Virus record (IMG/VR): IMGVR_UViG_2681813318_000003
Length of the DNA stretch: 64,000 bases
Reading direction: 5' to 3' (one strand)
From: a virus
Lineage: Duplodnaviria > Heunggongvirae > Uroviricota > Caudoviricetes
Within the stretch, counting starts at the first letter, position 1. Each line of letters begins with the position of its first letter. The notes below the pieces were generated by a model. It had not been told where the DNA came from. It saw only the letters and a program-made list of their open reading frames with translations, and ran no database searches. Both the position numbers and the translations under genes were made by a program. Below are positions 1-56,836 of this stretch, piece after piece.

Positions 1-167
1 CCTTCCAACCGAGTTGATGAACTCCTGCCATGGAACGTAGTACTCACCAATAAATAAGCGTCAATACGGTGCTCCGTTGACGCTTACAATCGAGATCGAG
101 TAATTTGGTCATTGGTTAAAATCCTTTTAAAAGAGAGGCCCATCCTGAGCCTCTGCTTAATTACTGA

Positions 168-914
168 TTAATCTGCGGGGTTAATCGTTACTGATTTAGT
201 TGCCTTCTTACCACCGCTATTGCTGGTGAAGGAGATATTTGTAGAACCCTGCGCCACACCACGTACCAGACCCGTTTGATCTACCGTGGCCTTTTCCTGG
301 TCTTCGGATTCCCAAACACCGGTTTTGTCTGCGGCATCAGCTGGAGTGATTTCGGCTGTCAGTTGCACAGTTTCTCCAGCTTTTACGGTTGGAGATTCCG
401 GTGCGATCGACACAGTTTTTACCGGTTTAGGGCCGCTCATTCTTCCCAGAACGCCTTCGTCATCAGGGTATGCGCTGAACTGAACAGAGAACACACGAAC
501 ATCATCAGACTGGTAGGTCATAGTGAAGTTGCCCGCGGTTGCCGCTTTCGGGATGGTCAACACATAGTCGGTGGTGTCCTGCGGAGTCAGAACCAGCTCC
601 TTCGCCACATCAATCAGGTTAACGCCCTGTGCAGATGTGATCGTGACAGAGTTGTCATCTTCGCTCAGAGTAGAACCAGGCATCAGGTCAACCATGTTTT
701 GGAGTACAGACTCAGCCAGAGGCGCGGTGATGGTAATGTTGCGCCCCTGAACTAATTCGGAAATTACGGTCTGCCCCAACTGATCGACGGTGACTTTCAG
801 CGTTTCAGTGGCTACTTCAACCTGAACACCACCTTTGGTGTAACCCAAATCCACACCACCAAACGACACCTTACAGGCACCAAGTTTGATGTTTTTTACA
901 TGGGTATTAGACAT
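168..914 (-). CDS. Major tail protein with C-terminal Ig-like (Big_2-type) domain
   Basis: ORF 168..950; probable start ATG at 914 preceded by AAGGAG. N-terminal tube-like region plus C-terminal Ig-like repeat, same architecture as lambda gpV-type tail proteins. Last gene of the virion operon inside the window. Confidence 0.55.
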   Translation of the reverse strand: MSNTHVKNIKLGACKVSFGGVDLGYTKGGVQVEVATETLKVTVDQLGQTVISELVQGRNITITAPLAESVLQNMVDLMPGSTLSEDDNSVTITSAQGVNLIDVAKELVLTPQDTTDYVLTIPKAATAGNFTMTYQSDDVRVFSVQFSAYPDDEGVLGRMSGPKPVKTVSIAPESPTVKAGETVQLTAEITPADAADKTGVWESEDQEKATVDQTGLVRGVAQGSTNISFTSNSGGKKATKSVTINPAD

Positions 915-988
915 TGATGGAAAACTCCTTTTTCCGTTAATTCTACGCATTCATTGCGCTAATAGTAAGTATATACTTACTAATTGAG

Positions 989-1345
989 TTAATTCAATAA
1001 ATAGCCAGCAAATTCAACAGGAATGCCTGCTTCTATTAATGCCCCATCATTTTTGGGATAAATGATTGGCATCGCCATCGGTCGTACAAGTCGAAAATAA
1101 ACACCACCAGATTCCGTTTCCTCTACTGGAAACATCTCAATGATTTTATTGGCTTTCTCAACCGTCGTAGTAATTGACGAACCACGCACAATGATTGTGA
1201 ATGATTCGAGATAAAAGCCCTGTAGCTCATGATCGATGCTGATACCGGTATTTGGGTTAATAAGCAGGACGCCAGATTTCACATTGGCAGGCAAGTAGTG
1301 ACAGAAAATGTCAGTCCCGACCGTGCCAATCTTTGCCTTCTGCAT
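989..1345 (-). CDS. Tail component (possible tail terminator or completion protein)
   Basis: ORF 989..1495 trimmed to the internal ATG at 1345 so it does not overlap the upstream gene; lies between head-tail genes and the major tail gene. Confidence 0.35.
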   Translation of the reverse strand: MQKAKIGTVGTDIFCHYLPANVKSGVLLINPNTGISIDHELQGFYLESFTIIVRGSSITTTVEKANKIIEMFPVEETESGGVYFRLVRPMAMPIIYPKNDGALIEAGIPVEFAGYLLN

Positions 1346-1373
1346 CAAACTTGCAAACGCTTCAATAAACACA

Positions 1374-1847
1374 TTAACCTCTCGTAAATCCGGCTTTTCT
1401 GGCAGCCTCAAGAATCGCTTCTGAGAACTGCTTCTCGCTAATTTCCACCGCTCTTTCCAGAAAGTGTGGCCCAACACGGGGTTTAACACCGGCAATTGGT
1501 GGGTTTGTCACGTTCTTCATTCGAGAAAGATAACCGAGTCGGTATTTACCCAGCTCCATGTACTTAGCATAGTCACCTACTTCTACGCCCGGATGCCCCT
1601 GACGTGGTTTTGCTCCAGACACAGAAAGCTCAATACGCAGCCCTGAATAACCTTCTTTAATCACCCTGGCAAAGATGGCTGTCTCCAGAGATCCGGTTTC
1701 CAGCGGGGCCATTGCACGGCTGAAACGCTCAACCAAACGCGCCAGCTTTTCCATGTCCCGAATAAGATATCGCTTAAATGCTTTCTGGCTGTTGTTGAGT
1801 CTATTCCCCGCACGTTTGAACTGATGCGCATCGTATTTCAGACCCAT
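1374..1847 (-). CDS. Head-tail joining or tail component (HK97 gp10-like, tentative)
   Basis: 157-aa ORF in the conserved position between head-closure genes and the tail terminator. Confidence 0.35.
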   Translation of the reverse strand: MGLKYDAHQFKRAGNRLNNSQKAFKRYLIRDMEKLARLVERFSRAMAPLETGSLETAIFARVIKEGYSGLRIELSVSGAKPRQGHPGVEVGDYAKYMELGKYRLGYLSRMKNVTNPPIAGVKPRVGPHFLERAVEISEKQFSEAILEAARKAGFTRG

Positions 1848-2182
1848 ATATTCGCCCCTACTTCAAGATGCCCAGGTCTTCCTCGTAGCCCCCAGCGGCG
1901 ATGAACACTGGACACCTTTAATTTTTGACCTTCAAGGATCAGTACATCATCAAGTTGTACAGCCGCTTCCAAAGGGACAACTAACACAGCATCAAACAGC
2001 TCCAGACTCGCCTTACCACGACTACCAGAGCTATCAGCACGAACTGACGATTTCTCATTACTCTGTTCGAACTTAACCACGCCGACATTCGTCTTCCTGA
2101 CGAATTGTAATTGCGCCTCACCGTAAACGTTCTTTGCGCCAAAGCGGTAGATCGCAATTTCTGTTTGCCATGAAATATTCAT
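1838..2182 (-). CDS. Head-tail connector or head closure protein (tentative)
   Basis: ORF 1838..2278 trimmed to ATG 2182 with SD-like CAGGGAGAG upstream; synteny only. Confidence 0.3.
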   Translation of the reverse strand: MNISWQTEIAIYRFGAKNVYGEAQLQFVRKTNVGVVKFEQSNEKSSVRADSSGSRGKASLELFDAVLVVPLEAAVQLDDVLILEGQKLKVSSVHRRWGLRGRPGHLEVGANIWV

Positions 2183-2261
2183 GCTCTCTCCCTGTTGTTG
2201 TCGGTCGCTCTCATTACTGGCCAAAAACCCTTTAGACCAAAAGTAAATAATGCGACTGGCG

Positions 2262-3095
2262 TTACGCACGGCGAACAATCATACGGTTGTTGATGTAACT
2301 GACCAGCAAGCGCCAGGTACTACGAGCCACATGCACGTTTGCAGCTTTACCGGTACGGTACATGTTGGTTGTTTCACCGATGGACTCTGACAAAATGCCA
2401 TCCTCTCGTGCTGCGGCTACATCATTGCCATTTGCGATCTCACACGCTTCGTTGACAACGGCAAGCATCAACGCTTCTTTGAAGTAGTCAGGGAACTCTT
2501 CAAACTTCTCCTGCGTCATCTTTTCCCAATCGACTAAATCATGCCGGTACGCTCCATCTGCTCCCCACGGAATGTCATACACATTCAGCATATTTTGAGG
2601 GCGATCGTATCGGTCAAAGTCGATACGTAGAATTTTGCGGATTGAGAACGGTAAAGTTTTAATACGTCTGGTAGCCTCAATGAGACGCTTGCGCATTAAG
2701 CCTTCACCATCCGACAGCAAAGTGTCCCCATTCAGCATATCGATCGCCTGCATTTGAGCATCAGCGACAGTTGCAAACGACTGTTCTGGTATCGACAGTT
2801 CAAAAGTATTCAGCAGAACATACATTTGACGCTCTTCATGCGTCAGGCCCGATGCAACAGCCTTCACAATGACGTACCGCAGATCTCGCTCTTTCTCAGA
2901 GAGCTGGTTATATTCAGCCGACACGACAACCGGAATCGACATTTGACCGTTGGTAATTTCTAGCGGCTCGCCATCAACGAGAATAGCCCCGGTGCTGTCC
3001 TTTACTGTGTAGGTGGCAGATTCGATATCCAGCACGTTGAAGGCAAATGAAAGAGAAACAGCTTCACCGCTACGATACGAGTCGATCTGCGCCAT
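2262..3095 (-). CDS. Hypothetical virion protein (possible head-tail adaptor)
   Basis: 277-aa ORF within the structural operon, start coupled to the stop of the upstream gene. Confidence 0.3.
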   Translation of the reverse strand: MAQIDSYRSGEAVSLSFAFNVLDIESATYTVKDSTGAILVDGEPLEITNGQMSIPVVVSAEYNQLSEKERDLRYVIVKAVASGLTHEERQMYVLLNTFELSIPEQSFATVADAQMQAIDMLNGDTLLSDGEGLMRKRLIEATRRIKTLPFSIRKILRIDFDRYDRPQNMLNVYDIPWGADGAYRHDLVDWEKMTQEKFEEFPDYFKEALMLAVVNEACEIANGNDVAAAREDGILSESIGETTNMYRTGKAANVHVARSTWRLLVSYINNRMIVRRA

Positions 3096-3529
3096 TACTC
3101 ACCACCTTGTGCTTTCAGGATGCCGTCAATCATTTCGACAATTCCTTTCGCTTTGACACCAACCTGATTACCAATAACTCGTAGACCGGCAATACCTTCG
3201 TTGTCTGCAATTGACTCCAGCTCTTCTCGTGTGAAAGTCTGGATCTGTTTGGCCGGTTCATCTGGTGTCCCACGTTTCATTGGCACAATGTCAGGCGCTG
3301 CTGGCTCGGTAATCAGGTCTGCTGTCAATTCACCACGATCACTGTATGCGGCAGACGGAGAAACATTTTTGCCCTCTACTGTTGACGCTCGCATTGAAGC
3401 ACAAATCCTCTGCTGATCGATAAAAGGCAACTCCGCTACGGATACCCCGTTCTCGAACTGAACGCCACACAGCATTCCCGAATAACCGGAAAATTGCGGT
3501 TCTAATAAAACAATTTTTGCTGGTTTCAT
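3095..3529 (-). CDS. Hypothetical virion protein
   Basis: 144-aa ORF, ATG at 3529 with GAGAGAAAG upstream; position between decoration and head-tail genes. Confidence 0.3.
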   Translation of the reverse strand: MKPAKIVLLEPQFSGYSGMLCGVQFENGVSVAELPFIDQQRICASMRASTVEGKNVSPSAAYSDRGELTADLITEPAAPDIVPMKRGTPDEPAKQIQTFTREELESIADNEGIAGLRVIGNQVGVKAKGIVEMIDGILKAQGGE

Positions 3530-3573
3530 AACGCTTTCTCTCTACATGGGCGGCTTTCGCCGCCCAATATTGA

Positions 3574-4494
3574 TTATTCCTGTGCAGCAGTGACTTCTAC
3601 GGTCGCTGTCGCTTTGTGGCTACCATCTTGGGTAGTAACCTCGATTGTGGCAGTACCAGCCGCAACGCCAGTTACAACACCGGTTTCGCTATCAACCGTT
3701 GCAAACTCGGTATTTTTGGATTCCCAAGTAACGGTTTTATTTGTTGCTCCTGCCGGCTCGACATTTGCGGTCAGCTGAACAGTTTTGTTTGCCTCAACGG
3801 TTGTGCTATTTGGGTCGATTTCGACGCCGGTAACAGCCACAACAGGCGCAGTTACTTCCACCGTTGCAGTTGCCTTTTTGCTGCCATCTTGGGAAACGAT
3901 CTCAATCGTCGCAGTGCCAACTTCTACACCAGTAACGTTCCCGCTCTGGTCTACCGTTGCCTTATCTTCATTTTTTGAAGACCAGGTAACAGCCTTATTC
4001 GTCGCATTTGACGGCTGAACATTCGCTTTCAGACTGACTGATTTCCCTTTCTCAACAGAGGTTGAGTCTGGCGTTACCGTTACGGATTGAACGGCTACCG
4101 GATTTACGGTGACTTCCACTGACGCGGAAAGCTGGGTTTCCTGATCAGTTGCAGTAATTTTTACTTTGCCTGGTGCTACACCAGTTACTAATCCAGTGCC
4201 GTTAACGGCTGCAATTTGATCATTAGCTGACTTCCAAGTGAATGAACTGGCACTCTTACCCATACTAATACCTGCACTAAGTTGAACAGTTTTCCCAACC
4301 AAAACTGACGGTGAAGCCGGGGTTATGTTTACGGATTGGGAGAGGGGAACCGCCTGCAAACAAGCAGATAGCTGACTTTGTTGCCGCTCGGTTAAAGGTT
4401 CATCGGAGATAGAATTGGTAAATCCGGCGCGGCACATATGCCCCGTAAAATCCGAAAATGCCTCTTCCGTAATCTTCATCTTTTGTTCTGGCAT
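3574..4494 (-). CDS. Ig-like domain (three Big_2-type repeats) head decoration protein
   Basis: Three tandem about 80-aa repeats of the type VTVTP..SV..G..V.L.A.V.P..A.NK.VTW.S...ATV; ATG 4494 preceded by AGGAG; directly downstream of the capsid gene. Confidence 0.55.
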   Translation of the reverse strand: MPEQKMKITEEAFSDFTGHMCRAGFTNSISDEPLTERQQSQLSACLQAVPLSQSVNITPASPSVLVGKTVQLSAGISMGKSASSFTWKSANDQIAAVNGTGLVTGVAPGKVKITATDQETQLSASVEVTVNPVAVQSVTVTPDSTSVEKGKSVSLKANVQPSNATNKAVTWSSKNEDKATVDQSGNVTGVEVGTATIEIVSQDGSKKATATVEVTAPVVAVTGVEIDPNSTTVEANKTVQLTANVEPAGATNKTVTWESKNTEFATVDSETGVVTGVAAGTATIEVTTQDGSHKATATVEVTAAQE

Positions 4495-4510
4495 TTCTTG
4501 CTCCTACAAA

Positions 4511-4536
4511 AAGGGTGGGCGTATAGCCCACCCTTA
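4511..4536 (-). terminator. Rho-independent terminator or attenuator after the capsid gene
   Basis: GGGTGGGC..GCCCACCC hairpin followed by a T-run on the minus strand, between capsid and decoration genes. Confidence 0.5.
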
Positions 4537-4567
4537 AACATAGATAATTGCTTATCTACCACACTGA

Positions 4568-5443
4568 TTAAATTTTTACATTGGTCAGTGCAGCGATAGC
4601 CTTATCGTGCTTATTCGCCAGAGAGCAGTACCACTTCACACGGGTACGTACTGCGTCTTTGTTCTGTACAGTACCAATGTTTTCAACAACGATACCTGCG
4701 TTATCGCCGCCATACAGACCAGTAACGCCGTTCTCTTCTGACAGATGCAGGCAATAGATGCTTGCTTTGCCAGCATCGGTCGGGATGAAGTCGTTGATGA
4801 TGAACGGAACGCCGTTATGACACAGCATCGGACGACCAAAGTTCTCCATCATGATTTCAGACGGACCTACGTTTACTGTACGCAGCAGCGCACGATAAGC
4901 ACGCAGGTGCTCTGAACGCATCATGATGCAGTCAGCACCAAGATCTTTCACCGCATCGACCAGTTCGTCGAACATAGAGAAAGTCATAGATGCACCGGCG
5001 ATATCGATCTTCTGATCTGCGTGCATCAGGCGTGGAATGCCGTCAAACGCTTTGTTGTTGGAGCTGGAGTCACCCAAAATCAGGTTGCGGCGGAACGCAC
5101 GAGCCAGACCTTTAACTTTCTGACGAACCTGAATAGCCAACTGGTTATTGGTGTCGGCCATAGTGGTTGCCAGGAATTTATCAACGTCTACGTCACCAGC
5201 CAGAATACGCAGTTTCGCAACGCATTCTTCGAAGGTTGCTGCACCTTCCGGGATGGTGTCGTTAACGTCGATGAAGGTAGCTTCACTCAGCGTTTTTTCA
5301 CGGTTGTACAGATATGCCTTTGAAGTAATTTTCATAAAAGGCAGGATGGCAAACAGGTCATCGCGATCGATGATGGTTTCAATCACGCCCTGTTCAAGTT
5401 CGTTGTTAGACAGCTTTTCAGCTTCTTCACGCAGTAATGGCAT
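4568..5443 (-). CDS. Major capsid protein (HK97 fold)
   Basis: 291-aa ORF with AAAGGGA SD; follows portal and scaffold in canonical order; terminator downstream consistent with high expression. Confidence 0.65.
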   Translation of the reverse strand: MPLLREEAEKLSNNELEQGVIETIIDRDDLFAILPFMKITSKAYLYNREKTLSEATFIDVNDTIPEGAATFEECVAKLRILAGDVDVDKFLATTMADTNNQLAIQVRQKVKGLARAFRRNLILGDSSSNNKAFDGIPRLMHADQKIDIAGASMTFSMFDELVDAVKDLGADCIMMRSEHLRAYRALLRTVNVGPSEIMMENFGRPMLCHNGVPFIINDFIPTDAGKASIYCLHLSEENGVTGLYGGDNAGIVVENIGTVQNKDAVRTRVKWYCSLANKHDKAIAALTNVKI

Positions 5444-5468
5444 CTATCAATTCCCTTTGATTTAGATG

Positions 5469-6356
5469 TTACTTAAGTCCAATTTTCCCCAGACCGGAGG
5501 CCAACTTATCCATAGTCGACTTGTTCTTCGGTTGGGATATTGTGTAGGTCGATTTGGAATGTGAGCCTACACCCTGCTTGGCTTCGCTACGCATCAATGC
5601 GTCAGCTTCCGGATCTGCCCGCACAATGCGTTCAATCGCGGATTCAAACGGCAACGGCTTACCTTCACCGTCAACCAGAACAGCTCGTTCTTTATGACCT
5701 GCCGGTTTGTCATAACCCACTACGCTACCGTCTTCACCCACTTCAAAATGAGAACCGTAGATCACGCGGGCTTTTGCCGGAGTCATCAGAACTTTGTCAC
5801 GTAGGAAGAGAGAGTTACTGAAGGAAGCGCCCACGGTCATCTCGACTAATTGAGATTTCAGTGATGCGTTTTCACTTTCCAGTGCTGCATAACGTTCGTC
5901 ACGCTGTGCCAGCTCTGCCTGGTGTGCTTCGATCATCTGTTTTTTAACAGCATCGAACTCACCACGACGCTCCAGTTCAGCTTGCTCCGCCTCACGACGT
6001 GCGTTTTCTGCGGCCTGTTCAGCTTCTAAAAGCTGGCGAGCACGCGCCGGGTCGATATCACCGTACTGAGCAAGCTGATCGGCCAATGTGCGCTCTTTCT
6101 CTTTGCGCTTCATGTTCTCTTTCAGCAGTTCAGCACCAGCTTTCTTGGTTTTGCGAAGTTCGACCAGTAACTCTTCATGAGTCATGCCAGCGTATTCGTC
6201 ATCACCCTTCGGCTGCTCTTTTTGTTCACCCTGCTTGTCAGGATCTTGTGTACTCTGCTCATTATCAGCAGCTACACCGCCAGCGCCCCCACGCTCATGC
6301 GCTTCAGCAACATCCATCAGACCACGACGGGCCAAAAGCATTTGCCACAGTTTCAT
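5469..6356 (-). CDS. Scaffolding protein
   Basis: 295 aa, strongly charged E/A/Q/R-rich central coiled-coil-like region; located between portal and capsid genes. Confidence 0.5.
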   Translation of the reverse strand: MKLWQMLLARRGLMDVAEAHERGGAGGVAADNEQSTQDPDKQGEQKEQPKGDDEYAGMTHEELLVELRKTKKAGAELLKENMKRKEKERTLADQLAQYGDIDPARARQLLEAEQAAENARREAEQAELERRGEFDAVKKQMIEAHQAELAQRDERYAALESENASLKSQLVEMTVGASFSNSLFLRDKVLMTPAKARVIYGSHFEVGEDGSVVGYDKPAGHKERAVLVDGEGKPLPFESAIERIVRADPEADALMRSEAKQGVGSHSKSTYTISQPKNKSTMDKLASGLGKIGLK

Positions 6357-6377
6357 AAAAATTCCCTTTGTTACTTA

Positions 6378-7952
6378 TCACTCGTTCTCTTGAGTAGATG
6401 AGTCCCCATTCCCTCGGGGTTGATCTTGCCCGCTTTCTTGGGCCACACCACGATCATAAGTAAGTACTGACTTATTTTCAAGGGTATTTAGATCATTTTT
6501 TGGCGGAAAATTCAAGAGATCTTTATCAAATTCCTTTTTCATCGCCTCAGTAATGTTCGGGAAAATCTTCTCAATAAGCATTTCCATCTGGTGACGACGT
6601 ACAGAGTCCGGTGCCTGAAGTAATGACAGTTTCTCGGCAACAGAAAATTCATCTGTAAGGCCACGAATATCGAAACTTTCTGGATACGCAATTAAAGAGT
6701 GGTCTTCGTCCAGATCTACCCCCATCCATTTCGCAACCAGTAGCATGATTTGGCGTTCAGCCCTTTCCAGACGCTCTGCTTTTGTGACAAGCAAGCTATT
6801 TACACGCTGGAAGTCATACATTTTTGCGGCACCAGATGAGTTATCGATTCCCTGTGCGTTGTCCTGCTTCGTTCGCTCACCAGCTACACCAACTGAATGG
6901 TAGATTTCGTTAATCACCGTCTTAATCGTAGTGATGATCATCTGAGCTTGTTTCGGGTCTGGTGACAGATAAAACGGCTGGTTTCCACCTTCAGAATCGT
7001 AGGTGAAGACTCGCTTTGTGCCCATTTCAAGCACTTTAGTGTGGTTTTCATCACCAGGTAAAAGCGACTGTACCGGTATAGCCAACTGGCTAAATGTCTG
7101 ATCCTGAATAATGGCATCAAGGTTTGACAGATAGTTTGCAACCGCACGATCAAGATAAGCGATATCATCGATCAACGATGGGCTGAAATACGGTGATTCA
7201 CTTTCTCCAATACAATCAACAGGAAACACAGGAACTACGCCGAGATTATGCTCACCGCTATCCTCTAAAATAACTTTTGCCTGACGGCGACCTGCTCCAC
7301 CAGCGCCCTTCTTCACTTCCTCACGGAACAGATACCACTCGTTTTGTGTCCACAGACGATAACGTTGGTATTCCTGACCTGTAGAAGTAAAAGGATCTGC
7401 GTCATCACGAGCGACTTCCACAATTAACGCCCACAACATATTCCCGTCGTCGTCCCATGCCACATCCAGCATTTGCTGAGGTGAAATCCAGTAGGCGTAG
7501 GCGCGAGCATCTTTCTTTTTCTCGTCAGCTACTGACTCAACATCACCACTCATCGTGCTATCGACAACAACCCATATGCGACCGTAAATAGACGACTGCA
7601 AATCAATAGCGGCCATAAATAAGTCAATAGAGGCATTCTGGCGAGTCGCACGTTTCCAGAAATTGCGGATCTGCTCTGGTGCCTCTTCGATATTTCTATG
7701 AATGTCTTCTTTAAAGAGATATTTGTTGATGAGGTTTACCACCTCACGAGTGTGGTTGAAGCGATAAGCACGTTCAACTCGCTCCTTAAACTCCTGATCT
7801 CCCTCTTTAAAGTAACGAAAGATATTGTCTGTAAACCAACCACGCCCGCCAGCGTAAGTGCTGGCGAGGAAGTCCCAATGTTCTTTTTTCTTTTCGTATT
7901 CCGGGTGGCGTCGCGCCACCAGATCCTTAATTTGTTTGTCGTTCAATTCCAT
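6378..7952 (-). CDS. Portal protein
   Basis: 524-aa ORF immediately downstream of terminase large subunit; size and position typical of portal. Confidence 0.65.
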   Translation of the reverse strand: MELNDKQIKDLVARRHPEYEKKKEHWDFLASTYAGGRGWFTDNIFRYFKEGDQEFKERVERAYRFNHTREVVNLINKYLFKEDIHRNIEEAPEQIRNFWKRATRQNASIDLFMAAIDLQSSIYGRIWVVVDSTMSGDVESVADEKKKDARAYAYWISPQQMLDVAWDDDGNMLWALIVEVARDDADPFTSTGQEYQRYRLWTQNEWYLFREEVKKGAGGAGRRQAKVILEDSGEHNLGVVPVFPVDCIGESESPYFSPSLIDDIAYLDRAVANYLSNLDAIIQDQTFSQLAIPVQSLLPGDENHTKVLEMGTKRVFTYDSEGGNQPFYLSPDPKQAQMIITTIKTVINEIYHSVGVAGERTKQDNAQGIDNSSGAAKMYDFQRVNSLLVTKAERLERAERQIMLLVAKWMGVDLDEDHSLIAYPESFDIRGLTDEFSVAEKLSLLQAPDSVRRHQMEMLIEKIFPNITEAMKKEFDKDLLNFPPKNDLNTLENKSVLTYDRGVAQESGQDQPRGNGDSSTQENE

Positions 7953-7978
7953 TTGAATAACCTTAGATAATTACTTAC

Positions 7979-9235
7979 CTATCGAGAACCACCAAGAATA
8001 ACACGGTTTTTGACTGGATACCTACGATGTACTGGATAGCCCAATGCGTCTGCACTATGCTCAATGCCACCTGTCTTATCCATATCTCGTGTTCCAGGCT
8101 TGTAGATGACTTTTTCCAGTGAATCAATCAAATGCTTGCACTTCGGATCGATATACAGCCGGATATCTCCAGATGCGGTCATCAGCATTCGGTTAACAGC
8201 ATTAACACGATCCGCAATTGGCGGGTGCTTTTTCGAATAATCGACACGTAAGAATCCCTTCTCTTTGAATATGTCGACGTCAGACTCCCCGCGAGCATGT
8301 TGGCGATAAGCACCTGCCGGATCTGGAAATATCGTTATCTGTGATTTCCAGCGCCAGAAGCGTCTCTCAAGCTCATCACAAACCTCTGCCGTGTTAGAGG
8401 AAAAGAGCACCAATTCATCAATTGCCCATAGTTCACCATTTGGCTGAGGTTGCAAAATTACGGAAGACATCGGGTCAATGTTGAAGTCCTGCCCTACCCA
8501 TATAGGTAACCGAGGGTTGAACTGAAGCGGTTTTACATGCACGTTACGATCGAACGGGTAGTAAACGCGCCCGGACATGTTCTCAAAGCTGGCCAGGTAC
8601 TCCTGAGCGAACGATTTGGGGTCCATATCGTTCTTAGCAGCTTCAATTTCCGCCGTAGGTACAAACGGAGAATCGGCAGTTACAAACTGCCAGCTCTTCC
8701 ACTGTCCCTTTCTTTGCAGCTCTACGTTCTGGCCTATAGTCCACAGTTTGTGAAATTCCGAGAAGCCTTTTGGCGTACCAATGATCAGTGCACCGCCGCG
8801 TGTCGATGAAAGAGTAGGTCGTAACACCTTGTACCAAGTGTCAGCCTTCATATCCTGAAATTCATCAAGCACTACAAAATGCAACGCTACGCCGCGCAGA
8901 GTGTCAGGCTTATCAGCACCTTTGAGGGCGATCTCCGAACCGTTCTTCAACACGATTGTCATCGTGGTGTCGTTCTTTTTCCTAACCCACTTACGAGGCA
9001 GAACTTCCTGTAGATCGTCCCACAAAATCTGGCGAGCCATCTGGTAAGTAGGAGCGACATACCAGACCCTTTGCTTTTTTTCCTTTGCCGCCGCACGAAT
9101 AATAGTGGAGATCGACAACCGGGATTTTCCCCAGCGTCGACCAGCACAAACAACTTTAAATCGATGCGGAGACTGGAAGACTTTCATCTGTCCAGAATGC
9201 AGTTGCACAAGACTGAGCGAGGACGGGATTGCCAT
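7979..9235 (-). CDS. Terminase large subunit
   Basis: N-terminal Walker A-like VVCAGRRWGKS, ATPase plus nuclease size class, start overlapping the stop of the upstream small-subunit gene. Confidence 0.7.
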   Translation of the reverse strand: MAIPSSLSLVQLHSGQMKVFQSPHRFKVVCAGRRWGKSRLSISTIIRAAAKEKKQRVWYVAPTYQMARQILWDDLQEVLPRKWVRKKNDTTMTIVLKNGSEIALKGADKPDTLRGVALHFVVLDEFQDMKADTWYKVLRPTLSSTRGGALIIGTPKGFSEFHKLWTIGQNVELQRKGQWKSWQFVTADSPFVPTAEIEAAKNDMDPKSFAQEYLASFENMSGRVYYPFDRNVHVKPLQFNPRLPIWVGQDFNIDPMSSVILQPQPNGELWAIDELVLFSSNTAEVCDELERRFWRWKSQITIFPDPAGAYRQHARGESDVDIFKEKGFLRVDYSKKHPPIADRVNAVNRMLMTASGDIRLYIDPKCKHLIDSLEKVIYKPGTRDMDKTGGIEHSADALGYPVHRRYPVKNRVILGGSR

Positions 9236-9867
9236 TATTCGTCCTCCCCTTCACTTCCATCATCTGTCGCATCAAATTCGCTTAGAGCTTCTTCTTCCAA
9301 CGTCTCAAGCAATTCGTCATCGATGATTTCAGGCTCGTCGTCTTCCTGACGTAATTTCGCCACCTGGGAAGGCGTAAGCTCACCAAATACCAGATTCGGA
9401 ATTTCTTCCTCGTCATTTTCCGCATGATCCATGCCCAATGCTTTGGACGAAACTTCAAAGCATTTTGCAAGGGTATTACTGGCTCTCTGTAAGCTCTTGA
9501 GAGAATCCTCAATCGCCCCTAAAGGCTTACCCTCACGTTTGGCCGTAGTGACTTCGACCATCACCATCTGCCCCAACGCATACGCCCAGCCGTCATAACG
9601 TGTACGACGTTCTTCTATCTTTTCTGCACGGGCTTTAGCGCGAAGCTCTGCGTCAGATTTAAGAGACTCACGAACCATCTTCCCAACAGAGTCCGCGCCT
9701 TTCTCTAATCCTCGCTTTTTGAAATGTCTGGAGAGTGTTTCACGACGAATGCCGTACTCTTCCTCCAGCTTTGAGAGTGTATATTCGCCTGACGTCCATT
9801 TGGCTTCAGCTTCGGCCCACTCCGCTGGTGTCAGGCGAGTTTTTACCTCGTCTTTTTCGACCGTCAT
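9235..9867 (-). CDS. Terminase small subunit (DNA-binding, acidic C-terminus)
   Basis: 210-aa ORF directly upstream of and translationally coupled to the large subunit; SD AGAGGGA before ATG 9867. Confidence 0.5.
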   Translation of the reverse strand: MTVEKDEVKTRLTPAEWAEAEAKWTSGEYTLSKLEEEYGIRRETLSRHFKKRGLEKGADSVGKMVRESLKSDAELRAKARAEKIEERRTRYDGWAYALGQMVMVEVTTAKREGKPLGAIEDSLKSLQRASNTLAKCFEVSSKALGMDHAENDEEEIPNLVFGELTPSQVAKLRQEDDEPEIIDDELLETLEEEALSEFDATDDGSEGEDE

Positions 9868-9981
9868 AGATCCCTCTAAAACACACAGAGCGCGTCCATG
9901 CGCTCTAAAACAACTTGTTTACTGCATCTGCTAACCAACTTGTTTTCTGGGGTGTTTAATTAGGTCTGGCATGTCTTACGA

Positions 9982-24136: not shown

Positions 24137-24155
24137 GCGAAGAGAGGTTGTTTAA

Positions 24156-26189
24156 TTACTTAACCTGGTGGCCAGGTTTAGCACCAGCATCCGGGCTTAA
24201 CAGGAAGATATCTTTCCCGCCGGGGCCAGCAGCCATCACCATGCCTTCAGAGATACCGAAGCGCATTTTACGCGGAGCCAGGTTAGCCACCATAATTGTG
24301 TGACGACCAATCAGTGCCTGTGGGTCTGGATAAGCAGAACGGATGCCTGAGAAGACATTACGCTTTTCACCACCGAGATCCAGCGTCAGGCGCAGCAGCT
24401 TGTCAGAACCTTCAACAAACTCTGCGTTTTCAATCAGCGCCACGCGCAGGTCAACTTTAGCGAAGTCGTCAAAGGTGATGGTTTCCTGAATCGGGTCGTC
24501 TGCCAGTGGGCCAGTTACCGGTGCGGCTGTGGCTTTCACTTCTTCTTTGGATGCTTCCACCAGTGCTTCCACCTGTTTCATATCGATACGGTTATACAAT
24601 GCCTTGAACGGATTCACTTTATGGCCCAGCAGCGGTTGCTGGATACCATCCCAGGTCAGTTCTGTATTCAGGAATGCTTCTGCACGTTCAGTCAGTTTCG
24701 GCAGTACCGGTTTCAAGTACGTCATCAGCACGCGGAACAGGTTAATGCCCATAGAGCAAATCGCCTGCAGATCGGCATCGCGTCCTTCCTGCTTCGCCAC
24801 CACCCACGGAGCCTGTTCATCAACATAGCGGTTAGCCAGGTCAGCCAGTGCCATGATTTCACGGATAGCTTTACCAAATTCGCGGCTTTCCCATGCTTCG
24901 CCAATCACTTCAGCGGCATCAGTAAAGGTTTTGTACAGTTGCGGGTCAGCCAGTTCGCTTGCCAGCACGCCGTCAAAACGCTTGTTGATAAAGCCTGCAT
25001 TACGGGAGGCCAGGTTAACCACTTTGTTCACGATATCGGCATTCACGCGCTGAACGAAATCCTCCAGGTTGAGATCGATATCATCAATGCGCGAAGAGAG
25101 TTTCGCAGTGTAGTAGTAACGCAGGCTGTCGGCGTCAAAATGATTCAGCCAGGTGCTGGCTTTAATAAAGGTGCCGCGAGACTTGGACATCTTCGCGCCG
25201 TTCACCGTCACATAGCCGTGAACAAACAGGTTGGTCGGCTTGCGGAAGTTGCTGCCTTCCAGCATGGCAGGCCAGAACAGGCTGTGGAAGTAAACAATAT
25301 CTTTACCGATGAAGTGGTACAGCTCGGCGGTGGAGTCTTTCTTCCAGTATTCATCGAAGCTGGTGGTATCGCCGCGCTTGTCGCACAGATTCTTGAAGGA
25401 ACCCATGTAGCCAATCGGCGCGTCCAGCCAGACGTAGAAATATTTGCCCGGCGCGTTCGGAATTTCAAAACCGAAGTAAGGCGCATCGCGGGAGATATCC
25501 CACTGTTGCAGGCCGGATTCAAACCATTCCTGCATTTTGTTCGCCACCTGCTCCTGCAACGCGCCGCTGCGGGTCCATGCCTGCAACATTTCGCTGAAAG
25601 AAGGCAGATCAAAGAAGAAGTGTTCGGAATCACGCATTACCGGGGTAGCGCCAGAAACCACCGATTTCGGCTCGATCAATTCAGTCGGGCTATATGTTGC
25701 GCCGCAGACTTCACAGTTATCGCCGTATTGATCTGGCGCTTTACATTTCGGGCAGGTGCCTTTTACAAAACGATCCGGCAGGAACATGCCTTTTTCCGGG
25801 TCGTACAACTGAGAGATAGTGCGGTTTTTAATAAAACCGTTCTCTTTCAGGCGAGTATAGATAAGCTCAGACAACTGACGGTTCTCTTCGCTGTGCGTCG
25901 AGTGATAGTTGTCATAGCTGATGTTAAAGCCTGCGAAATCAGTCTGATGCTCATGACTCATTTCGCCAATCATCTGCTCCGGTGTGATACCAAGCTGCTG
26001 TGCTTTCAGCATGATCGGCGTACCGTGGGCATCGTCGGCACAGATGAAATTAACCTCGTGGCCGCGCATTCGCTGGTAACGAACCCAGACATCAGCCTGG
26101 ATGTGCTCCAGCATATGGCCGAGGTGGATTGAGCCGTTAGCGTACGGCAGCGCGCACGTCACCAGAATTTTCTTCGCGACTTGGGTCAT
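24156..26189 (-). CDS. metG: Methionine--tRNA ligase (host-type)
   Basis: 677-aa protein starting [31 protein letters not shown], class I HIGH motif, zinc knuckles CPKC/CEVC, KMSKS motif. Near-identical (a handful of substitutions) to Escherichia coli MetG as recalled from memory, not from a database search. The longer ORF to 26318 is an upstream read-through. Confidence 0.95.
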
Positions 26190-26346
26190 AGTAGGCATTA
26201 CTTCTTTGTAGTGAAAAGGGGCTTGATAGTAACAAAATGGCCTTATGTCTGCCATGTGATAACAGCATTTCTCATAAATGATTAAATGTCGTAGCTGGAG
26301 TACACTACAAGGCGACAATTGCGCAAATTAAAATAAAGGAGACGGG

Positions 26347-27447
26347 ATGAGCGAGTCCAAATCGCCGGATGCCCTGAGAGCAATGGTAGCCGGTACGCTG
26401 GCTAATTTTCAGCACCCAACCCTGAAACACAACCTGACTACGCTTAAAGCGTTACACCATGTTGCGTTGATGGATGACACACTGCATGTCGAACTAATCA
26501 TGCCTTTCGTGTGGAATAAGCCTTTTGAAGACCTGAAAGAGCAATGTAGTGGTGATCTGCTCCGTATCACTGGCGCAAAGGCTATTGACTGGAAGCTGTC
26601 GTACAACATTGCCACGCTTAAGCGCGTCAAAAACCAACCAGGCATTAATGGCGTTAAGAACATTATCGCCGTCAGCTCAGGCAAGGGCGGCGTGGGTAAA
26701 TCCTCCACGGCGGTAAACCTGGCACTGGCGTTGGCTGCTGAAGGTGCGAAAGTTGGTATTTTGGATGCCGATATCTATGGTCCATCAATTCCAACCATGC
26801 TGGGCGCGGAAAACCAACGTCCAACCTCACCTGACGGTACTCACATGGCACCTATCATGTCTCATGGCCTGGCAACCAACTCTATTGGTTATCTGGTCAC
26901 CGACGACAATGCAATGGTGTGGCGTGGACCGATGGCCAGCAAGGCGCTGATGCAGATGTTGCAGGAAACTCTATGGCCTGATCTGGACTATCTCGTTCTC
27001 GATATGCCGCCGGGCACTGGTGATATTCAGTTGACGCTGGCGCAGAACATTCCTGTAACTGGTGCGGTTGTGGTAACTACGCCGCAAGACATCGCGCTGA
27101 TCGATGCGAAGAAAGGCATTGTGATGTTCGAAAAAGTCGAAGTGCCGGTACTGGGTATCGTCGAAAACATGAGTGTGCATATTTGCAGTAACTGCGGTCA
27201 TCACGAGCCAATTTTTGGCACCGGTGGCGCACAGAAACTGGCCGAGAAATACAACACGCAGTTGTTAGGCCAAATGCCACTTCATATCTCTCTTCGTGAA
27301 GATCTGGATAACGGAACACCAACCGTTATTAGTCGTCCAGATAGCGAATTTACGGCTATTTATCGTGACCTCGCAGATCGCGTTGCTGCCCAAATGTATT
27401 GGCAAGGTGAAGTAATACCTGGCGAAATCGCATTCCGCGCAGTGTGA
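26347..27447 (+). CDS. apbC: Fe-S cluster carrier ATPase Mrp/ApbC (host-type)
   Basis: 366 aa, P-loop SGKGGVGKS, CxxC motif ICSNCGHHEP; divergent from metG with a 157-bp intergenic region as in the enterobacterial chromosome. Confidence 0.95.
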   Translation: MSESKSPDALRAMVAGTLANFQHPTLKHNLTTLKALHHVALMDDTLHVELIMPFVWNKPFEDLKEQCSGDLLRITGAKAIDWKLSYNIATLKRVKNQPGINGVKNIIAVSSGKGGVGKSSTAVNLALALAAEGAKVGILDADIYGPSIPTMLGAENQRPTSPDGTHMAPIMSHGLATNSIGYLVTDDNAMVWRGPMASKALMQMLQETLWPDLDYLVLDMPPGTGDIQLTLAQNIPVTGAVVVTTPQDIALIDAKKGIVMFEKVEVPVLGIVENMSVHICSNCGHHEPIFGTGGAQKLAEKYNTQLLGQMPLHISLREDLDNGTPTVISRPDSEFTAIYRDLADRVAAQMYWQGEVIPGEIAFRAV

Positions 27448-27452: not shown

Positions 27453-27478
27453 AGGCGGTGCATTGCACCGCCTAATCA
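27453..27478. terminator. Bidirectional terminator shared by mrp and the UmuD'-like gene
   Basis: GGCGGTGCATTGCACCGCC hairpin flanked by AAAAA on the plus side (T-run on the minus strand). Confidence 0.55.
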
Positions 27479-27484: not shown

Positions 27485-27874
27485 CTACATCACGGGACAA
27501 TCATCAAACTCGCCACTTCTTGCGTCGTTGATAATGTGAGTGATCACACCAAACACGGCATTGCTGCCCGTGCATCCATCGTCATCCTTTGGCAATGCTT
27601 CCTTCTTACCGGTTCTTAAATCCTCCAGATGCTGACGTGGGTACTTCCGGTATCTTTTTACGCGATATTCCCCACCCAGAGCGCATACAAGCAGAGAACC
27701 ATCAACCGGGGTAAGTGAGGAATCGACCACCAGCAATGCACCCTGTAATATTCCCTCACGATGATGACTATCAGCTGCCCTCATGAAGTAGGTCGCTGAA
27801 GGATGTCTAATTATCTGCTGATCAAGAGAAATACGGCTCTCAGCATAATCCGCCGCAGGAGAAGGGAAGCCCAT
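27485..27874 (-). CDS. UmuD'-like peptidase S24 protein encoded in pre-processed form (HumD-like)
   Basis: Starts MGFPSPAADY, corresponding to UmuD residues just after the Cys24-Gly25 autocleavage site; HPSATYF motif; Ser (ADSH) and Lys (RVKRYRK) of the catalytic dyad present; in-frame TAA five codons upstream excludes a longer N-terminus. Confidence 0.8.
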   Translation of the reverse strand: MGFPSPAADYAESRISLDQQIIRHPSATYFMRAADSHHREGILQGALLVVDSSLTPVDGSLLVCALGGEYRVKRYRKYPRQHLEDLRTGKKEALPKDDDGCTGSNAVFGVITHIINDARSGEFDDCPVM

Positions 27875-27890
27875 AATACTCGCCTCTTAA

Positions 27891-27910
27891 TACTGTATAT
27901 ACATACAGTA
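27891..27910. promoter_or_regulatory. LexA (SOS) box
   Basis: TACTGTATATACATACAGTA, a CTGT-N8-ACAG match to the SOS-box consensus, 17 nt upstream of the UmuD'-like ATG and overlapping a TTCAAA-17-TATACT promoter on the minus strand. Confidence 0.75.
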
Positions 27911-27964
27911 TATGTTGAAGCTATATATTTTTGAACTCTATCTCTTAAAAAAGATGTTAATAAG

Positions 27965-28207
27965 ATGCTAACTATTGAAAGGCATAAATATATACAATTC
28001 CATCAAACGTTATTTTTAACAAATTTTTTCTCTCCGTTGACTTTTGCGAAAGCCTTGTCTGGCCTAAATTGCGCGGAAGATACTTTTTCCTTCCTGAGTT
28101 ATCCACAGAGTTATGCACTTGCATGCATAACCTATACACACTATCTTAATTCGCAAGACACTGATGTTGCGGTATTGAAGGTTCATTGGGTTAAAAATAG
28201 ACATTAA
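27965..28207 (+). CDS. Hypothetical small hydrophobic protein (low confidence)
   Basis: 80-aa ORF divergent from the SOS-controlled gene, followed immediately by a terminator; weak SD. Confidence 0.25.
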   Translation: MLTIERHKYIQFHQTLFLTNFFSPLTFAKALSGLNCAEDTFSFLSYPQSYALACITYTHYLNSQDTDVAVLKVHWVKNRH

Positions 28208-28236
28208 AAAGCCCAGTTGACTAGGCTGGGCTTTTT
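28206..28236. terminator. Bidirectional rho-independent terminator
   Basis: AAAAAGCCCAGTTGACTAGGCTGGGCTTTTT. Confidence 0.6.
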
Positions 28237-28271
28237 AAAAGGAAACAGAGTTTGCGCCTCTGTTCCTGAGC

Positions 28272-28572
28272 CATAAGTATCTGGCGACTGAGCTAAGATT
28301 AACCGAATGTACTGGATTCATCAAGAAACGTTGAGCCGTCATGCTAGGTAATAATGACCATTTACCAAACATCGTTGTTCTCAAAGAAGATTTAAGTCCA
28401 GGTTTTTGGTGACTCTAAAACCTTACCTTAACTCGAAATCGTGCCGTAAGTATCTGGCGACTACAGATATTGCAACTGCAAAGGCAAGCTCAAAGGTATT
28501 TGCAGCTAGGTGCGATAAAACTAAGTGAGGCCTATAGTGCTTAACTTACTTTTCAAAATCGTGCCGCCTATG
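28272..28572. repeat. Two tandem imperfect repeat units in a non-coding region
   Basis: Both units begin with TAAGTATCTGGCGACT (28276 and 28449) and end with AAATCGTGCCG (28437 and 28555); no ORF. Confidence 0.45.
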
Positions 28573-28630
28573 TTCGCAATCATCGAAGCGATCATTGAGT
28601 ACGTCAACCAGCGCCCATAATGCTAGTTGT

Positions 28631-28660
28631 TACCGGCCCCATCCAAATGGGGCCATTTTA
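28631..28660 (+). terminator. Rho-independent terminator
   Basis: CCGGCCCCATCCAAATGGGGCC followed by ATTTTATT. Confidence 0.55.
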
Positions 28661-28669
28661 TTGTATTGA

Positions 28670-29559: not shown

Positions 29560-30256
29560 TCTGCGACTCCTGCGGAGGTTCTGGTAGCGGCATCCAATGG
29601 GTTACGTTGCTAATCAGTCCATATTCATTAGTTTGAGGATGGCCGCCGCGATCGTCTCCGTATTTAAAACTTTCCATAAAACCATAATGCTTACCCCCAT
29701 TAACGCTCACAAAGCCGTAATAAGCTGGTATAACGCCGATCTCACACGTAATCAGCAAAGGAAAACCAGTTCTCCAATTTAGCTCGCCGATTACAGGCAT
29801 TCGCTCACTACAGCTTATCCAGCTATCCTTAATGCCACTATCTTGACTCTGAAGCATGGCGGCACGACAGGCGTTCCAGCCTCTCACCTCTGCAATAGCG
29901 GCAACAGCATCGACCGCGTACATTTTAAGAGGGTTAGGCATTGGTTTTTCTTCAGGTACTACTGGAATGGGTGGGGCGGCGTAGACCTCAATAATTCCAT
30001 TATCAATAGGCCATTCTCCATCCTTGAGGTAGTCACTTGTGCCGTCAACTTGCTGTTCTGCAATGTGGAATGCACCTATTGGTTTTGCCTCAAGCGAGGC
30101 CAGTGCAATTCGTGCCAGTTCTAGATCTCGTTCAACCATCTCAAGAACAACTTTGCAGTCCGCACCTTCTTTGCTAACACGTCCTTTCAAGTTTTCCAGA
30201 TAACTAACGCTTTCGCGTGCATGGGAGATTAACTGTTCTTTGGTAAAGGTGGTCAT
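29552..30256 (-). CDS. DUF551-like phage protein (tentative)
   Basis: C-terminal GDDRGGHPQTNEYGLISNVTHWMPLPEPP resembles the conserved C-terminal motif of DUF551 proteins common in enterobacterial prophages. Confidence 0.35.
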   Translation of the reverse strand: MTTFTKEQLISHARESVSYLENLKGRVSKEGADCKVVLEMVERDLELARIALASLEAKPIGAFHIAEQQVDGTSDYLKDGEWPIDNGIIEVYAAPPIPVVPEEKPMPNPLKMYAVDAVAAIAEVRGWNACRAAMLQSQDSGIKDSWISCSERMPVIGELNWRTGFPLLITCEIGVIPAYYGFVSVNGGKHYGFMESFKYGDDRGGHPQTNEYGLISNVTHWMPLPEPPQESQSE

Positions 30257-30444
30257 TAGGCAGCTCTCTCAACAACAAGCAATTCGTCGTAGTCATAATC
30301 AGTTTCGGAGCCATCCGTACCGAACAGAGTCACTTTGTCACCGTCCATCCAGAAAGATTTAACCGCACATTGTTGACCTTTAGATGTTATGACCACATCA
30401 CCAGGTATTACGTCCTCAGCGCGAACTTCTATAGTTCTCATCAT
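30256..30444 (-). CDS. Hypothetical small protein
   Basis: ORF 30256..30570 trimmed to the internal ATG (MMRTIEV) that abuts the upstream stop. Confidence 0.3.
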
Positions 30445-30764
30445 GCTGATCCCTCTTTCTCTCCCCGGATAATTCTGTTGCACACATCCACGCACTCGTC
30501 GCAGATAAAAACGGCGTCCCCAGCAATTAACTTTTTGACGGCGTGCTGGGATTTGTTGCAGAAGCTGCAATAAAGCGTTCGCCTAACGGATACGGATGGT
30601 GCGCCAGATGTCAGCCGCGCCATATCGTTCTTGCGGCGCAACATCACACGGCTGAACTCAACCAGTTTCTCTGGGGATATCTCCTCCTCCGTAGCTAGCG
30701 TCTCTAGTCGTTCGAGTATGTGGAAGGCTTTTTCCTGGGTAATTGCAGAATGCGATGTGGTCAT
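30441..30764 (-). CDS. Small protein with ClpX-type C4 zinc-binding domain
   Basis: [36 protein letters not shown] closely parallels the ClpX N-terminal zinc-binding domain ([36 protein letters not shown]); no AAA+ module follows. Confidence 0.55.
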
Positions 30765-31106
30765 CTTCTTTCACCTTAATTTTCGACACGATCATGATTT
30801 AGCCAAAATCCACCATCCCGAAATGAGTGCATAATCTGACCAACATGAGTGAACAATCCCGTTCTCCTGTTGCTGATTCTTGTCCATTGCAAGACTCGAG
30901 GGTCGTTTCTACGAACTAATAGAATCTTTGCTTTACGGTTTTTCATCGTTTTGCTCTCCTGCGTTTCTTTGCTGCACGCCGAGCCGCCGCGATACCAGTA
31001 CGACGCTTTGATGCAGGAATACCGGTTCCATCAGAAAAGACATGCGACTTTATGAGTGATGTTGACGCCCAAAGGCGAATTGGGTGTGGAAGCAAGCCGA
31101 AGAACA

Positions 31107-31352
31107 CTATCTGCATTTCACACCACCATTTGTATTCGGTGAGCTATTTACTTCTTTCGCGTTAGCTTTGCGCTTAACTTCTCGAACGGTATAAGAAAGG
31201 TCATTAAGCATGATGACCGACGCCATAATATTGCAATGCAGTTGCTCTTCGACACGGTTAAGCATTATTCGCAAATCCGGGTGTTCCGCTTCAAATCTTG
31301 CACGCTCAATCTGCCATAAGTTGGCGGCTTCTAACGTTTTATTGGTTGCCAT
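31107..31352 (-). CDS. Hypothetical small protein
   Basis: 81-aa ORF with ATG at 31352. Confidence 0.3.
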   Translation of the reverse strand: MATNKTLEAANLWQIERARFEAEHPDLRIMLNRVEEQLHCNIMASVIMLNDLSYTVREVKRKANAKEVNSSPNTNGGVKCR

Positions 31353-31353
31353 A

Positions 31354-31803
31354 TCAAACTCCTTTGCGAAGCTCAGCGGCGAAGGCTACTGCGTGATCAT
31401 GATGTTCAAGTGTGTATGCATACTCCGCAAACATCTCCACGCCCTGCGCACGTACTTCAGCCAGAAAAGCATCGGTGGCTGGAGTCTCCGTCAATTCGCT
31501 AACCCAATTATCTCCGTGTTCCTCGGCACACATCGCATCGAATGCTCGCTCAGATTCTTTCAGGGCTGCATTCTCCGCCGCTAATGCGTCTCTTTGCGCC
31601 CGCAACTTCTCAATTTCGGCAGCCATGTAGTAACCAACCATAGCGAAGACGGCAAAAGAGTTGTCTGCCTCATCAGGCGACACTGAGGCCATTAGCAGGC
31701 CATCGTAAAAATCGTGACTCCCATTGGTGATCGCCACCGCATAGGAGTCGTGGTTCTCGCGCTTGTGAATGAGAACTACGGGATTTTCGATTTTGTTACT
31801 CAT
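31354..31803 (-). CDS. Hypothetical protein
   Basis: 149-aa ORF; conserved start context AGAGAAAAACACATG; inverted class A motif about 70 nt upstream. Confidence 0.4.
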   Translation of the reverse strand: MSNKIENPVVLIHKRENHDSYAVAITNGSHDFYDGLLMASVSPDEADNSFAVFAMVGYYMAAEIEKLRAQRDALAAENAALKESERAFDAMCAEEHGDNWVSELTETPATDAFLAEVRAQGVEMFAEYAYTLEHHDHAVAFAAELRKGV

Positions 31804-41037: not shown

Positions 41038-41046
41038 CAGAACTCC

Positions 41047-41466
41047 TTACAACTTCTTAGCGCCCTTAAGTAGGGCGCTACGTACAAATTGAGCCGCTTT
41101 TTTCAAAGTTTCTTCACTGGTTTCACAGACAATCGGATCTTTCCACTTACCTGACGCAGTGTTGAGAATATTGATTTGGTTGCTATCCAGACAAATAGAG
41201 ATATAAAGCACCGTGCCACCAGCCAGCATCAAATGCATAGGAAACAGAGGCTTTTTACTGTCTTCACTGAACTGAGACATGGCGATGTTAATGGCTTCAC
41301 CTACTTGTGCGCCAACAAGCCCCTGCGCAGTTTCGAATATGGCACGAATAGCCAGACGAGCCTCTCGATCGCTCATAAGCGACCGGGAATGTTCGTCCGC
41401 TACACGAATCAAAGCCTCTGTTGTTTTCCGATCCAGTTCATCTTCAAGCAACATTTCACTAAACAT
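41047..41466 (-). CDS. Hypothetical protein
   Basis: 139-aa ORF with SD TAAGGA. Confidence 0.4.
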   Translation of the reverse strand: MFSEMLLEDELDRKTTEALIRVADEHSRSLMSDREARLAIRAIFETAQGLVGAQVGEAINIAMSQFSEDSKKPLFPMHLMLAGGTVLYISICLDSNQINILNTASGKWKDPIVCETSEETLKKAAQFVRSALLKGAKKL

Positions 41467-55145: not shown

Positions 55146-55162
55146 ATGACAAAGGTGTCCAC

Positions 55163-56792: not shown

Positions 56793-56836
56793 GACTATGA
56801 AATATGACTGCGGCACGTGCCGCAGTCAGTTTGCAT

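Follow-up and report, generated by a model that had tools for sequence, protein, structure and literature searches.

What does a solitary, LexA-controlled gene for a UmuD-like protein contribute to the element that carries it when that protein starts where UmuD is normally cut? The locus at 27485-27910 of the window analysed here (the whole 64,000-nt stretch of DNA) raises this question, having been taken in an earlier reading of the letters, referred to below as the original prediction, for a gene encoding a ready-made UmuD' with no N-terminal arm and no umuC partner, in the manner of HumD of phage P1. The answer depends on how the gene is built and controlled, on what its product is related to, on the element in which it sits, and on two features of the protein itself, namely the residues of the former peptidase site and an acidic C-terminal tail.

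The humD transcription unit and its product

The coding sequence opens with an ATG at 27874 on the minus strand and its product begins MGFPSPAADY, giving the 129-residue protein that had been described (Table 1). Since an in-frame TAA stands at 27889..27887, five codons 5' of this ATG, a longer precursor is ruled out, again as had been argued. The SOS box, TACTGTATGTATATACAGTA, is a perfect 20-bp palindrome that lies 16 nt 5' of the ATG; graded by mismatch count to the LexA consensus TACTGTATATATATACAGTA, it deviates at one position, matching its description as a near-consensus site. A consensus scan allowing up to 3 mismatches returned this site (27910-27891) as the sole one in the 64-kb window, and 100 dinucleotide-preserving shuffles of the window returned 0 such sites, the chance expectation being none. 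The only other CTGT-N8-ACAG in the window, at 20575, has a GC-rich spacer and was set aside as a chance-type match. The predicted -10 element runs into the SOS box, in line with the proposed overlap of box and promoter. At the 3' end, the predicted terminator begins 12 nt past the stop codon, inside the 37-nt gap that precedes the convergent apbC gene. A search of the window by tblastn with the P1 protein Lxr found no divergent gene that could share the SOS box, and the ORF listing and promoter scan of the window gave no plausible plus-strand ORF or promoter divergent from humD. As read from its sequence, the locus is a compact single-gene unit consisting of promoter, operator, gene and terminator.

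Table 1 Features of the humD locus, with positions as numbered in the window
Feature	Position	Strand	Details and basis
humD coding sequence	27485..27874	minus	129 aa, TAG stop 27485-27487; ORF listing and sequence
Shine-Dalgarno-like AAGAGG	27883..27888	minus	8 nt before ATG; sequence reading
In-frame TAA, fifth codon 5' of ATG	27887..27889	minus	sequence reading
LexA (SOS) box TACTGTATGTATATACAGTA	27891..27910	no strand	1 mismatch to consensus; homologue of the P1 LexA site
Predicted sigma-70-like promoter, TTCAAA-17 nt-TATACT	27907..27935	minus	9/12 consensus matches; pattern only
Promoter parts	TTCAAA 27935-27930; TATACT 27912-27907	minus	consensus scan
Predicted intrinsic terminator hairpin, 9 pairs (7 G-C), then TTTTT	27453..27473	minus	terminator scan

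The profile matches identify the gene as an orthologue of humD, beyond mere likeness to it. The NCBIfam HumD equivalog NF051876, named 'HumD family translesion DNA polymerase', matched residues 1-129 along its entire length (profile 1-129/129) with 217.3 bits against a cutoff of 120, while the UmuD model (NF007621, Pol V autoproteolytic subunit) reached 84.3 bits, below its cutoff of 110, and the LexA model 25 bits against a cutoff of 111. The protein was assigned to Peptidase_S24 by Pfam and to 'UmuD-like protein' by PHROGs, and in related plasmids PGAP names it either 'HumD family translesion DNA polymerase' or 'S24 family peptidase'. In tblastn searches of phage genomes the closest copy was CYRAN_98 of phage Cyrano (99.2% identity), followed by those of P1, P7, D6, RCS47 and SJ46 (91.5-93%), where the gene is annotated humD, by a phiKO2 homologue (~70%), and by copies in the lambdoid phages HK140 and HK639 and the P22-like phages BTP1, MG40 and BIS08P22 (62-66%). 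The best match among solved structures was UmuD' (1UMU, E = 6e-22). The original comparison with P1 HumD is thus well supported, given 91.5% identity and an equivalog score of 217 bits against 120, and humD as found here belongs to a gene family that is already known, widely distributed and annotated. Two other identities were considered and rejected: the protein is not a LexA/CI-type S24 repressor, as its 129 residues comprise the S24 core alone and no N-terminal DNA-binding domain, and it is not UmuD proper, as it has neither the N-terminal arm with its Cys/Ala-Gly cleavage site nor a umuC operon, and scores below the NF007621 cutoff. The name 'LexA family transcriptional regulator', borne by many HumD-family entries (P0016, P0017, P0024, P0054 and others), is a misnomer for proteins that have no DNA-binding domain.

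The N-terminus lies where it had been predicted. Gly2 aligns to UmuD Gly25, the first residue of UmuD', both in the HMMER alignment to 1UMU and in a MAFFT alignment with K-12 UmuD and P1 HumD, and the P1 protein starts at the same place. The same arm-less start is found in 109 of the 120 closest clusters. Seven HumD-family entries are 'long' (148-223 aa), and in six of them the residue directly before GFPSP is Met, the exception being P0079 with Thr; the extension looks like an SOS box that has been translated, and these entries are over-extended gene calls. The original prediction had also described an insertion of about 20 residues, EDLRTGKKEALPKDDDGCTGSNA, and this did not stand: both HMMER and MAFFT align the segment (residues 84-106, carried by P1 HumD as well) to UmuD ~108-126, than which it is longer by a net 4 residues, and in these alignments it is a diverged surface region with no 20-residue insertion. 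Besides a one-residue deletion directly before the Ser (UmuD ASGDSM, HumD AA-DSH), what really makes the protein differ in length from UmuD' is an extension of 10 residues at the C-terminus, SGEFDDCPVM, of which the original prediction made no mention.

The carrier element and related loci

The window and the complete genome of phage Cyrano (pLF82) are collinear at 97-99% identity, and the window spans the junction of the linear Cyrano record, covering Cyrano 52235-108379 and 1-9914. Cyrano is a 108-kb SSU5-like siphovirus phage-plasmid of E. coli LF82, maintained at a copy number of ~5.5 per cell; ciprofloxacin induces it 39-fold (PMC9928086), so that SOS conditions are part of the life of the element. 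Among complete E. coli genomes, plasmids of 105-113 kb gave the best DNA matches. That humD has no umuC partner proved correct: tblastn with E. coli UmuC detected no UmuC-like polymerase in the 64-kb window (best E = 6.5) or elsewhere on the element, as represented by the full Cyrano genome of 108 kb (best E = 0.45), and the Cyrano annotation lists no Y-family polymerase. The absence of umuC holds for the whole element type, which would have to obtain the catalytic subunit from its host. The element does encode its own RecA, a gp32-like SSB and the alpha and epsilon subunits of Pol III. Its RecA (59575-60648, minus strand, 357 aa; Pfam RecA E = 2e-42) adjoins a 5'-3' exonuclease and the gp32-like SSB, and the Cyrano recA gene (55065-57404, 779 aa) contains an in-frame 1,263-bp insertion at 55257-56519 that is absent from the window and is probably an intein or homing-type insert.

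Several neighbouring features of the window deserve mention in their own right. Upstream of humD, 27911-28669 is an AT-rich stretch (39% GC) of ~760-790 bp with no convincing gene, and since no Rfam family was found in the window at the gathering threshold, no known RNA element explains this gap. Within it, a small ORF at 27972-28139 (minus strand) has a product that resembles P1 UpfO (MQVHNSVDNSGRKK compared with LQVHNFVDKSGRKK), and a perfect DnaA box, TTATCCACA, at 28099-28107 stands beside an imperfect one, TTATGCAC, at 28111-28118, in a region homologous to a P1 segment that is annotated with two DnaA boxes. On the other side of humD, a divergent metG-apbC(mrp) pair occupies 24155-27443; the block shares 88.4% DNA identity with the chromosomal mrp-metG region of E. 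coli K-12 over 3,298 bp, ending at both stop codons, with protein identities to K-12 of 98.7% for MetG and 94.8% for ApbC and a GC content of 51% against 46% for the window. Cyrano carries this block as CYRAN_99/100, with apbC annotated there as MinD. The metG gene duplicates an essential aminoacyl-tRNA synthetase on a mobile element. Finally, a 107-aa ORF at 30441-30764 (minus strand) has zf-C4_ClpX as its only recognisable domain (Pfam E = 4e-17) and no AAA+ ATPase, and sits in a segment, ~29835-31569, that is largely unshared with Cyrano. The C4 zinc finger of ClpX docks adaptors and substrates, UmuD included, and a free-standing version of it could, judging by its domain content, serve as a decoy.

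The studied counterpart of the gene is P1 HumD (P1_gp103, YP_006569.1; McLenigan et al. 1999, J Bacteriol 181:7005), which PMC7092418 describes as an already activated, shorter UmuD. According to the note in the P1 record and PMC7092418, P1 HumD can stand in for UmuD' in vivo and binds both UmuC and RecA filaments, properties known for the P1 protein only. The P1 record annotates a LexA site at 87545-87564 and states that the protein 'functionally complements E. coli UmuD''. Both proteins have 129 residues, the Met-Gly start at the UmuD' N-terminus, the divergent segment at 84-106 and the C-terminal tail; in both elements, each a plasmid-prophage of E. coli, the LexA box occupies a homologous position (19 nt before the ATG in P1 and 16 in the window) and umuC is absent. 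Good complementation by P1 HumD was reportedly obtained only upon over-expression. The two systems differ in their carriers, P1 being a P1-like myovirus and the element studied here an SSU5-like siphovirus phage-plasmid of the Cyrano/pLF82 type, and in their surroundings, since the P1 LexA site also serves the divergent lxr gene, with hot beyond it and phd-doc following humD, whereas the window has neither lxr nor hot, and beyond humD come its terminator and the convergent apbC-metG block. The SOS box of the window has 1 mismatch to the consensus, and that of P1 has 3.

At the DNA level, homology to P1 extends from the first base of the P1-annotated LexA site to the stop codon, with 84% identity over 428 bp (P1 locus 3962-4389, window 27910-27486). 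A second P1-like block (window 28123-28000) matches the P1 upfO/DnaA-box region at 75%; in P1 this region is separated from the LexA site by hot and lxr, the genes missing from the window. With 84-85% DNA identity and a dS of 0.81 to P1 humD, the divergence is old rather than the product of a recent transfer, and the accompanying dN of 0.044 gives a dN/dS of 0.054. These substitution rates describe an old split under strong purifying selection, and the gene is neither a recent copy nor in decay. Among 5,426 complete E. coli genomes, the cassette of box plus gene matched 889, and in 745 of these the match covered 80% or more of the query length; the places matched number 736 on plasmids and 212 on chromosomes. 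A protein search with HumD returned 562 clusters, many of them named HumD family.

With E. coli UmuD and UmuD' (PDB 1UMU, 1AY9 and 1I4V) the protein shares the S24-fold core at ~37-40% identity, the Ser and Lys positions, and a LexA box upstream of the gene. UmuD differs in possessing a 24-residue arm, while HumD has no arm, no cleavage site and no self-processing step; the arm of UmuD holds ClpX-tethering and clamp-binding motifs, which are accordingly absent from HumD. HumD furthermore has A-DSHH in place of GDSM, carries the 10-residue acidic C-terminal extension, and is not part of a umuC operon.

The wider family was sampled by fetching eight additional phage loci. The UmuD-like proteins of the linear plasmid-prophages of N15 type (phiKO2 gp23, N15 gp26), like those of lambdoid or P22-like phages (HK140, HK639, BTP1), resemble window HumD in being arm-less, at 62-70% identity, in having the C-terminal tail and an SOS box upstream, and in the absence of umuC. 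They differ in that Thr takes the nucleophile position occupied by Ser here, in that a divergent dinI gene often uses the same SOS box (phiKO2, HK140), and in that the gene lies between tail-fibre genes and integrase or partition genes. The arm-less homologues of phiKO2, HK140, HK639, pAEv1818, yong1 and APC_JM3.2 (the last pseudogenised) are all solitary and have no umuC; they follow tail-fibre genes and usually precede integrase/attP or partition genes, and a CTG-N10-CAG LexA-type box stands 8-44 nt before the start in each arm-less phage copy examined. In HK140 the box is found farther upstream, beyond one small ORF, at the divergent dinI promoter. Phages with full-length umuD, PHB10 (139 aa) and ENT39118 (145 aa), have umuC directly downstream. 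Among the sampled phages, arm-less copies therefore occur without umuC and arm-bearing copies with it. Several lambdoid, Stx and P22-like phages, mEp234 among them, retain no more than decayed remnants of humD: the APC_JM3.2 copy (1501-1890) has two internal stop codons, and others carry fragments that match residues 45-128 and lie at the end of the genome, beside attP or integrase. The putative attP of HK140 overlaps the 3' end of its humD homologue.

Peptidase residues, acidic tail and alternative functions

A conserved C-terminus sets the protein apart from UmuD'. Window HumD ends INDARSGEFDDCPVM (…EFDDCPVM), which is among the best conserved stretches of the protein: D117, R119, E122, F123, D124 and P127 are invariant in an alignment of 40 HumD sequences, the clade motif …ND(A/M)R..E(F/W)DD.P.. 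recurs in 110 of the 120 closest clusters, and Aeromonas and Hafnia phages retain tails reading …EWDDLPVI and …EFDDNPCM. When 50%-identity representatives were compared in an alignment-free manner, the tail motif occurred in 7 of 34 arm-less proteins and in 0 of 54 arm-bearing ones (p = 8e-4), and one representative, P0128, ends in EFDDTPF. This ending brings to mind the SSB C-peptide DFDDDIPF, which recruits the partners of SSB (PMC3936761); by sequence the likeness is loose, and we treat it as a lead rather than a result. We found no description of a function for the acidic tail of HumD in the literature as far as it could be searched. An AlphaFold2 model built from the 40-sequence alignment, which is shallow, all of its sequences being at least 67% identical, had a mean pLDDT of 53 and a pTM of 0.42 and placed a helix where UmuD' has a beta-strand; it was set aside as unreliable. 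The presence of a conserved tail that UmuD' does not have suggests an additional partner or role beyond that of a ready-made UmuD'. A more specific proposal, which we regard as rather doubtful, is that the arm-less clade lost the arm, let the peptidase motif decay and gained an acidic docking peptide resembling the tip of SSB. If this were true, the tail could tie the phage subunit, and host UmuC bound to it, to replication and repair proteins that bind SSB tails or to RecA, and mobile elements would possess a differently wired translesion complex.

Three other functions for HumD have to be weighed against that of a UmuD' substitute, and two of them turn on these same features of the protein. 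Were HumD an active S24 serine peptidase working in trans, for instance by cleaving host UmuD, LexA or a phage repressor, one could point to Ser36 and Lys73, which align to Ser60 and Lys97 of UmuD, and to the Lys position, which is K in 117 of the 118 closest clusters with both columns. At the position of the Ser, however, 71 of the same clusters have S, 44 have T and 3 have A. Distant arm-less phage copies carry Q/R or Y/R as the pair, and HK639 has Met at the Lys position; a nucleophile that varies in this way is not what is expected of a catalytic residue essential to a family, and the peptidase reading is undermined by it. Ser36 also falls below 90% conservation in the 40-sequence alignment, and the motif around it reads A-DSHH, with its 1-residue deletion. 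Because dyad counts taken from the large MAFFT alignment of distant representatives are prone to misaligned columns, we relied on the alignment-free test on 50%-identity representatives, in which a GDSM-type motif was present in 31 of 54 arm-bearing proteins as against 0 of 34 arm-less ones (Fisher p = 2e-9). A catalytic role in trans is in our view very unlikely. The residues of the Ser/Lys dyad that had been singled out in the original prediction are present, but the canonical motif has been lost across the arm-less clade. Ser36 and Lys73 are probably vestigial rather than a sign of protease activity, and the simplest reading of the alignments would be that the chemistry of self-cleavage became dispensable once the arm was lost.

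It is likewise unlikely, though less so, that HumD mainly modulates host SOS proteins through its acidic tail instead of building an active polymerase, for example by titrating or redirecting UmuC, UmuD or RecA, or by docking on readers of SSB-type acidic tails in the service of the replication and recombination machinery that the phage-plasmid itself encodes. Such a role would account for the invariance of the tail and its restriction to arm-less proteins, for its persistence in Aeromonas and Hafnia phages, and for the closeness of the P0128 ending to the SSB peptide, and it would fit an element that has its own RecA, gp32-like SSB and exonuclease. Yet P1 HumD, which has the same tail, is reported to complement UmuD' (P1 record note), and the stretch that resembles the SSB tail is short and out of register by one residue. 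A role of this kind is in any case compatible with HumD as a ready-made UmuD' and does not exclude it. The last of the three, which makes HumD an SOS-controlled, antirepressor-like trigger of prophage induction comparable to the LexA-controlled Tum of phage 186, draws on the fact that humD carries the only strong LexA box of the 64-kb window and on the induction of the near-identical Cyrano by ciprofloxacin (PMC9928086). We consider it extremely improbable, in that the protein is a bona fide UmuD' homologue with no similarity to known antirepressors, the cassette sits at accessory 'moron' positions in the unrelated phages P1, N15-like phiKO2, lambdoid HK140 and HK639 and an Aeromonas phage, whose immunity systems are quite different, and a second LexA-type box, TACTGTTTACTTATACAGTG, in the Cyrano lysogeny module offers a more natural route. 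This second box, at Cyrano 41044-41063, has 4 mismatches with intact CTG/CAG cores. It stands 27 nt upstream of the integrase gene, beside a putative lysogeny repressor, and may connect SOS with the induction of SSU5-like phage-plasmids.

Proposed role of the cassette

On balance we think it highly probable that the humD cassette of this SSU5-like phage-plasmid is a one-gene SOS operon that supplies a ready-made UmuD' to the UmuC protein of the host. In an undamaged cell, host LexA would keep humD off by binding to the near-consensus box, into which the -10 element extends, and upon DNA damage RecA* would drive the self-cleavage of LexA, with the result that HumD is made. As HumD starts at the equivalent of UmuD Gly25, it would need no RecA*-mediated self-cleavage, and the delay caused by the processing of UmuD to UmuD' would be skipped. 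A HumD dimer, together with host UmuC and RecA-ATP, would then form an active translesion polymerase of the Pol V type, for which the element would provide the accessory subunit only and the host the catalytic one. For dimerisation, the binding of UmuC and RecA, SOS mutagenesis and UV survival, the proposal leans on orthology to the studied P1 protein, whose properties window HumD would be expected to share.

The conserved acidic tail is the only loose thread in this picture that could open something new. For the family, the locus means that phage-plasmids of the SSU5 type, like those of the P1 and N15 types, carry the cassette of SOS box and humD. Its presence in about one in six complete E. 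coli genomes gives it a mild relevance to stress-induced mutagenesis in clinical E. coli, where a humD gene that is both widespread and mobile could remove the checkpoint that UmuD cleavage imposes on Pol V when SOS is induced, for example by fluoroquinolones.
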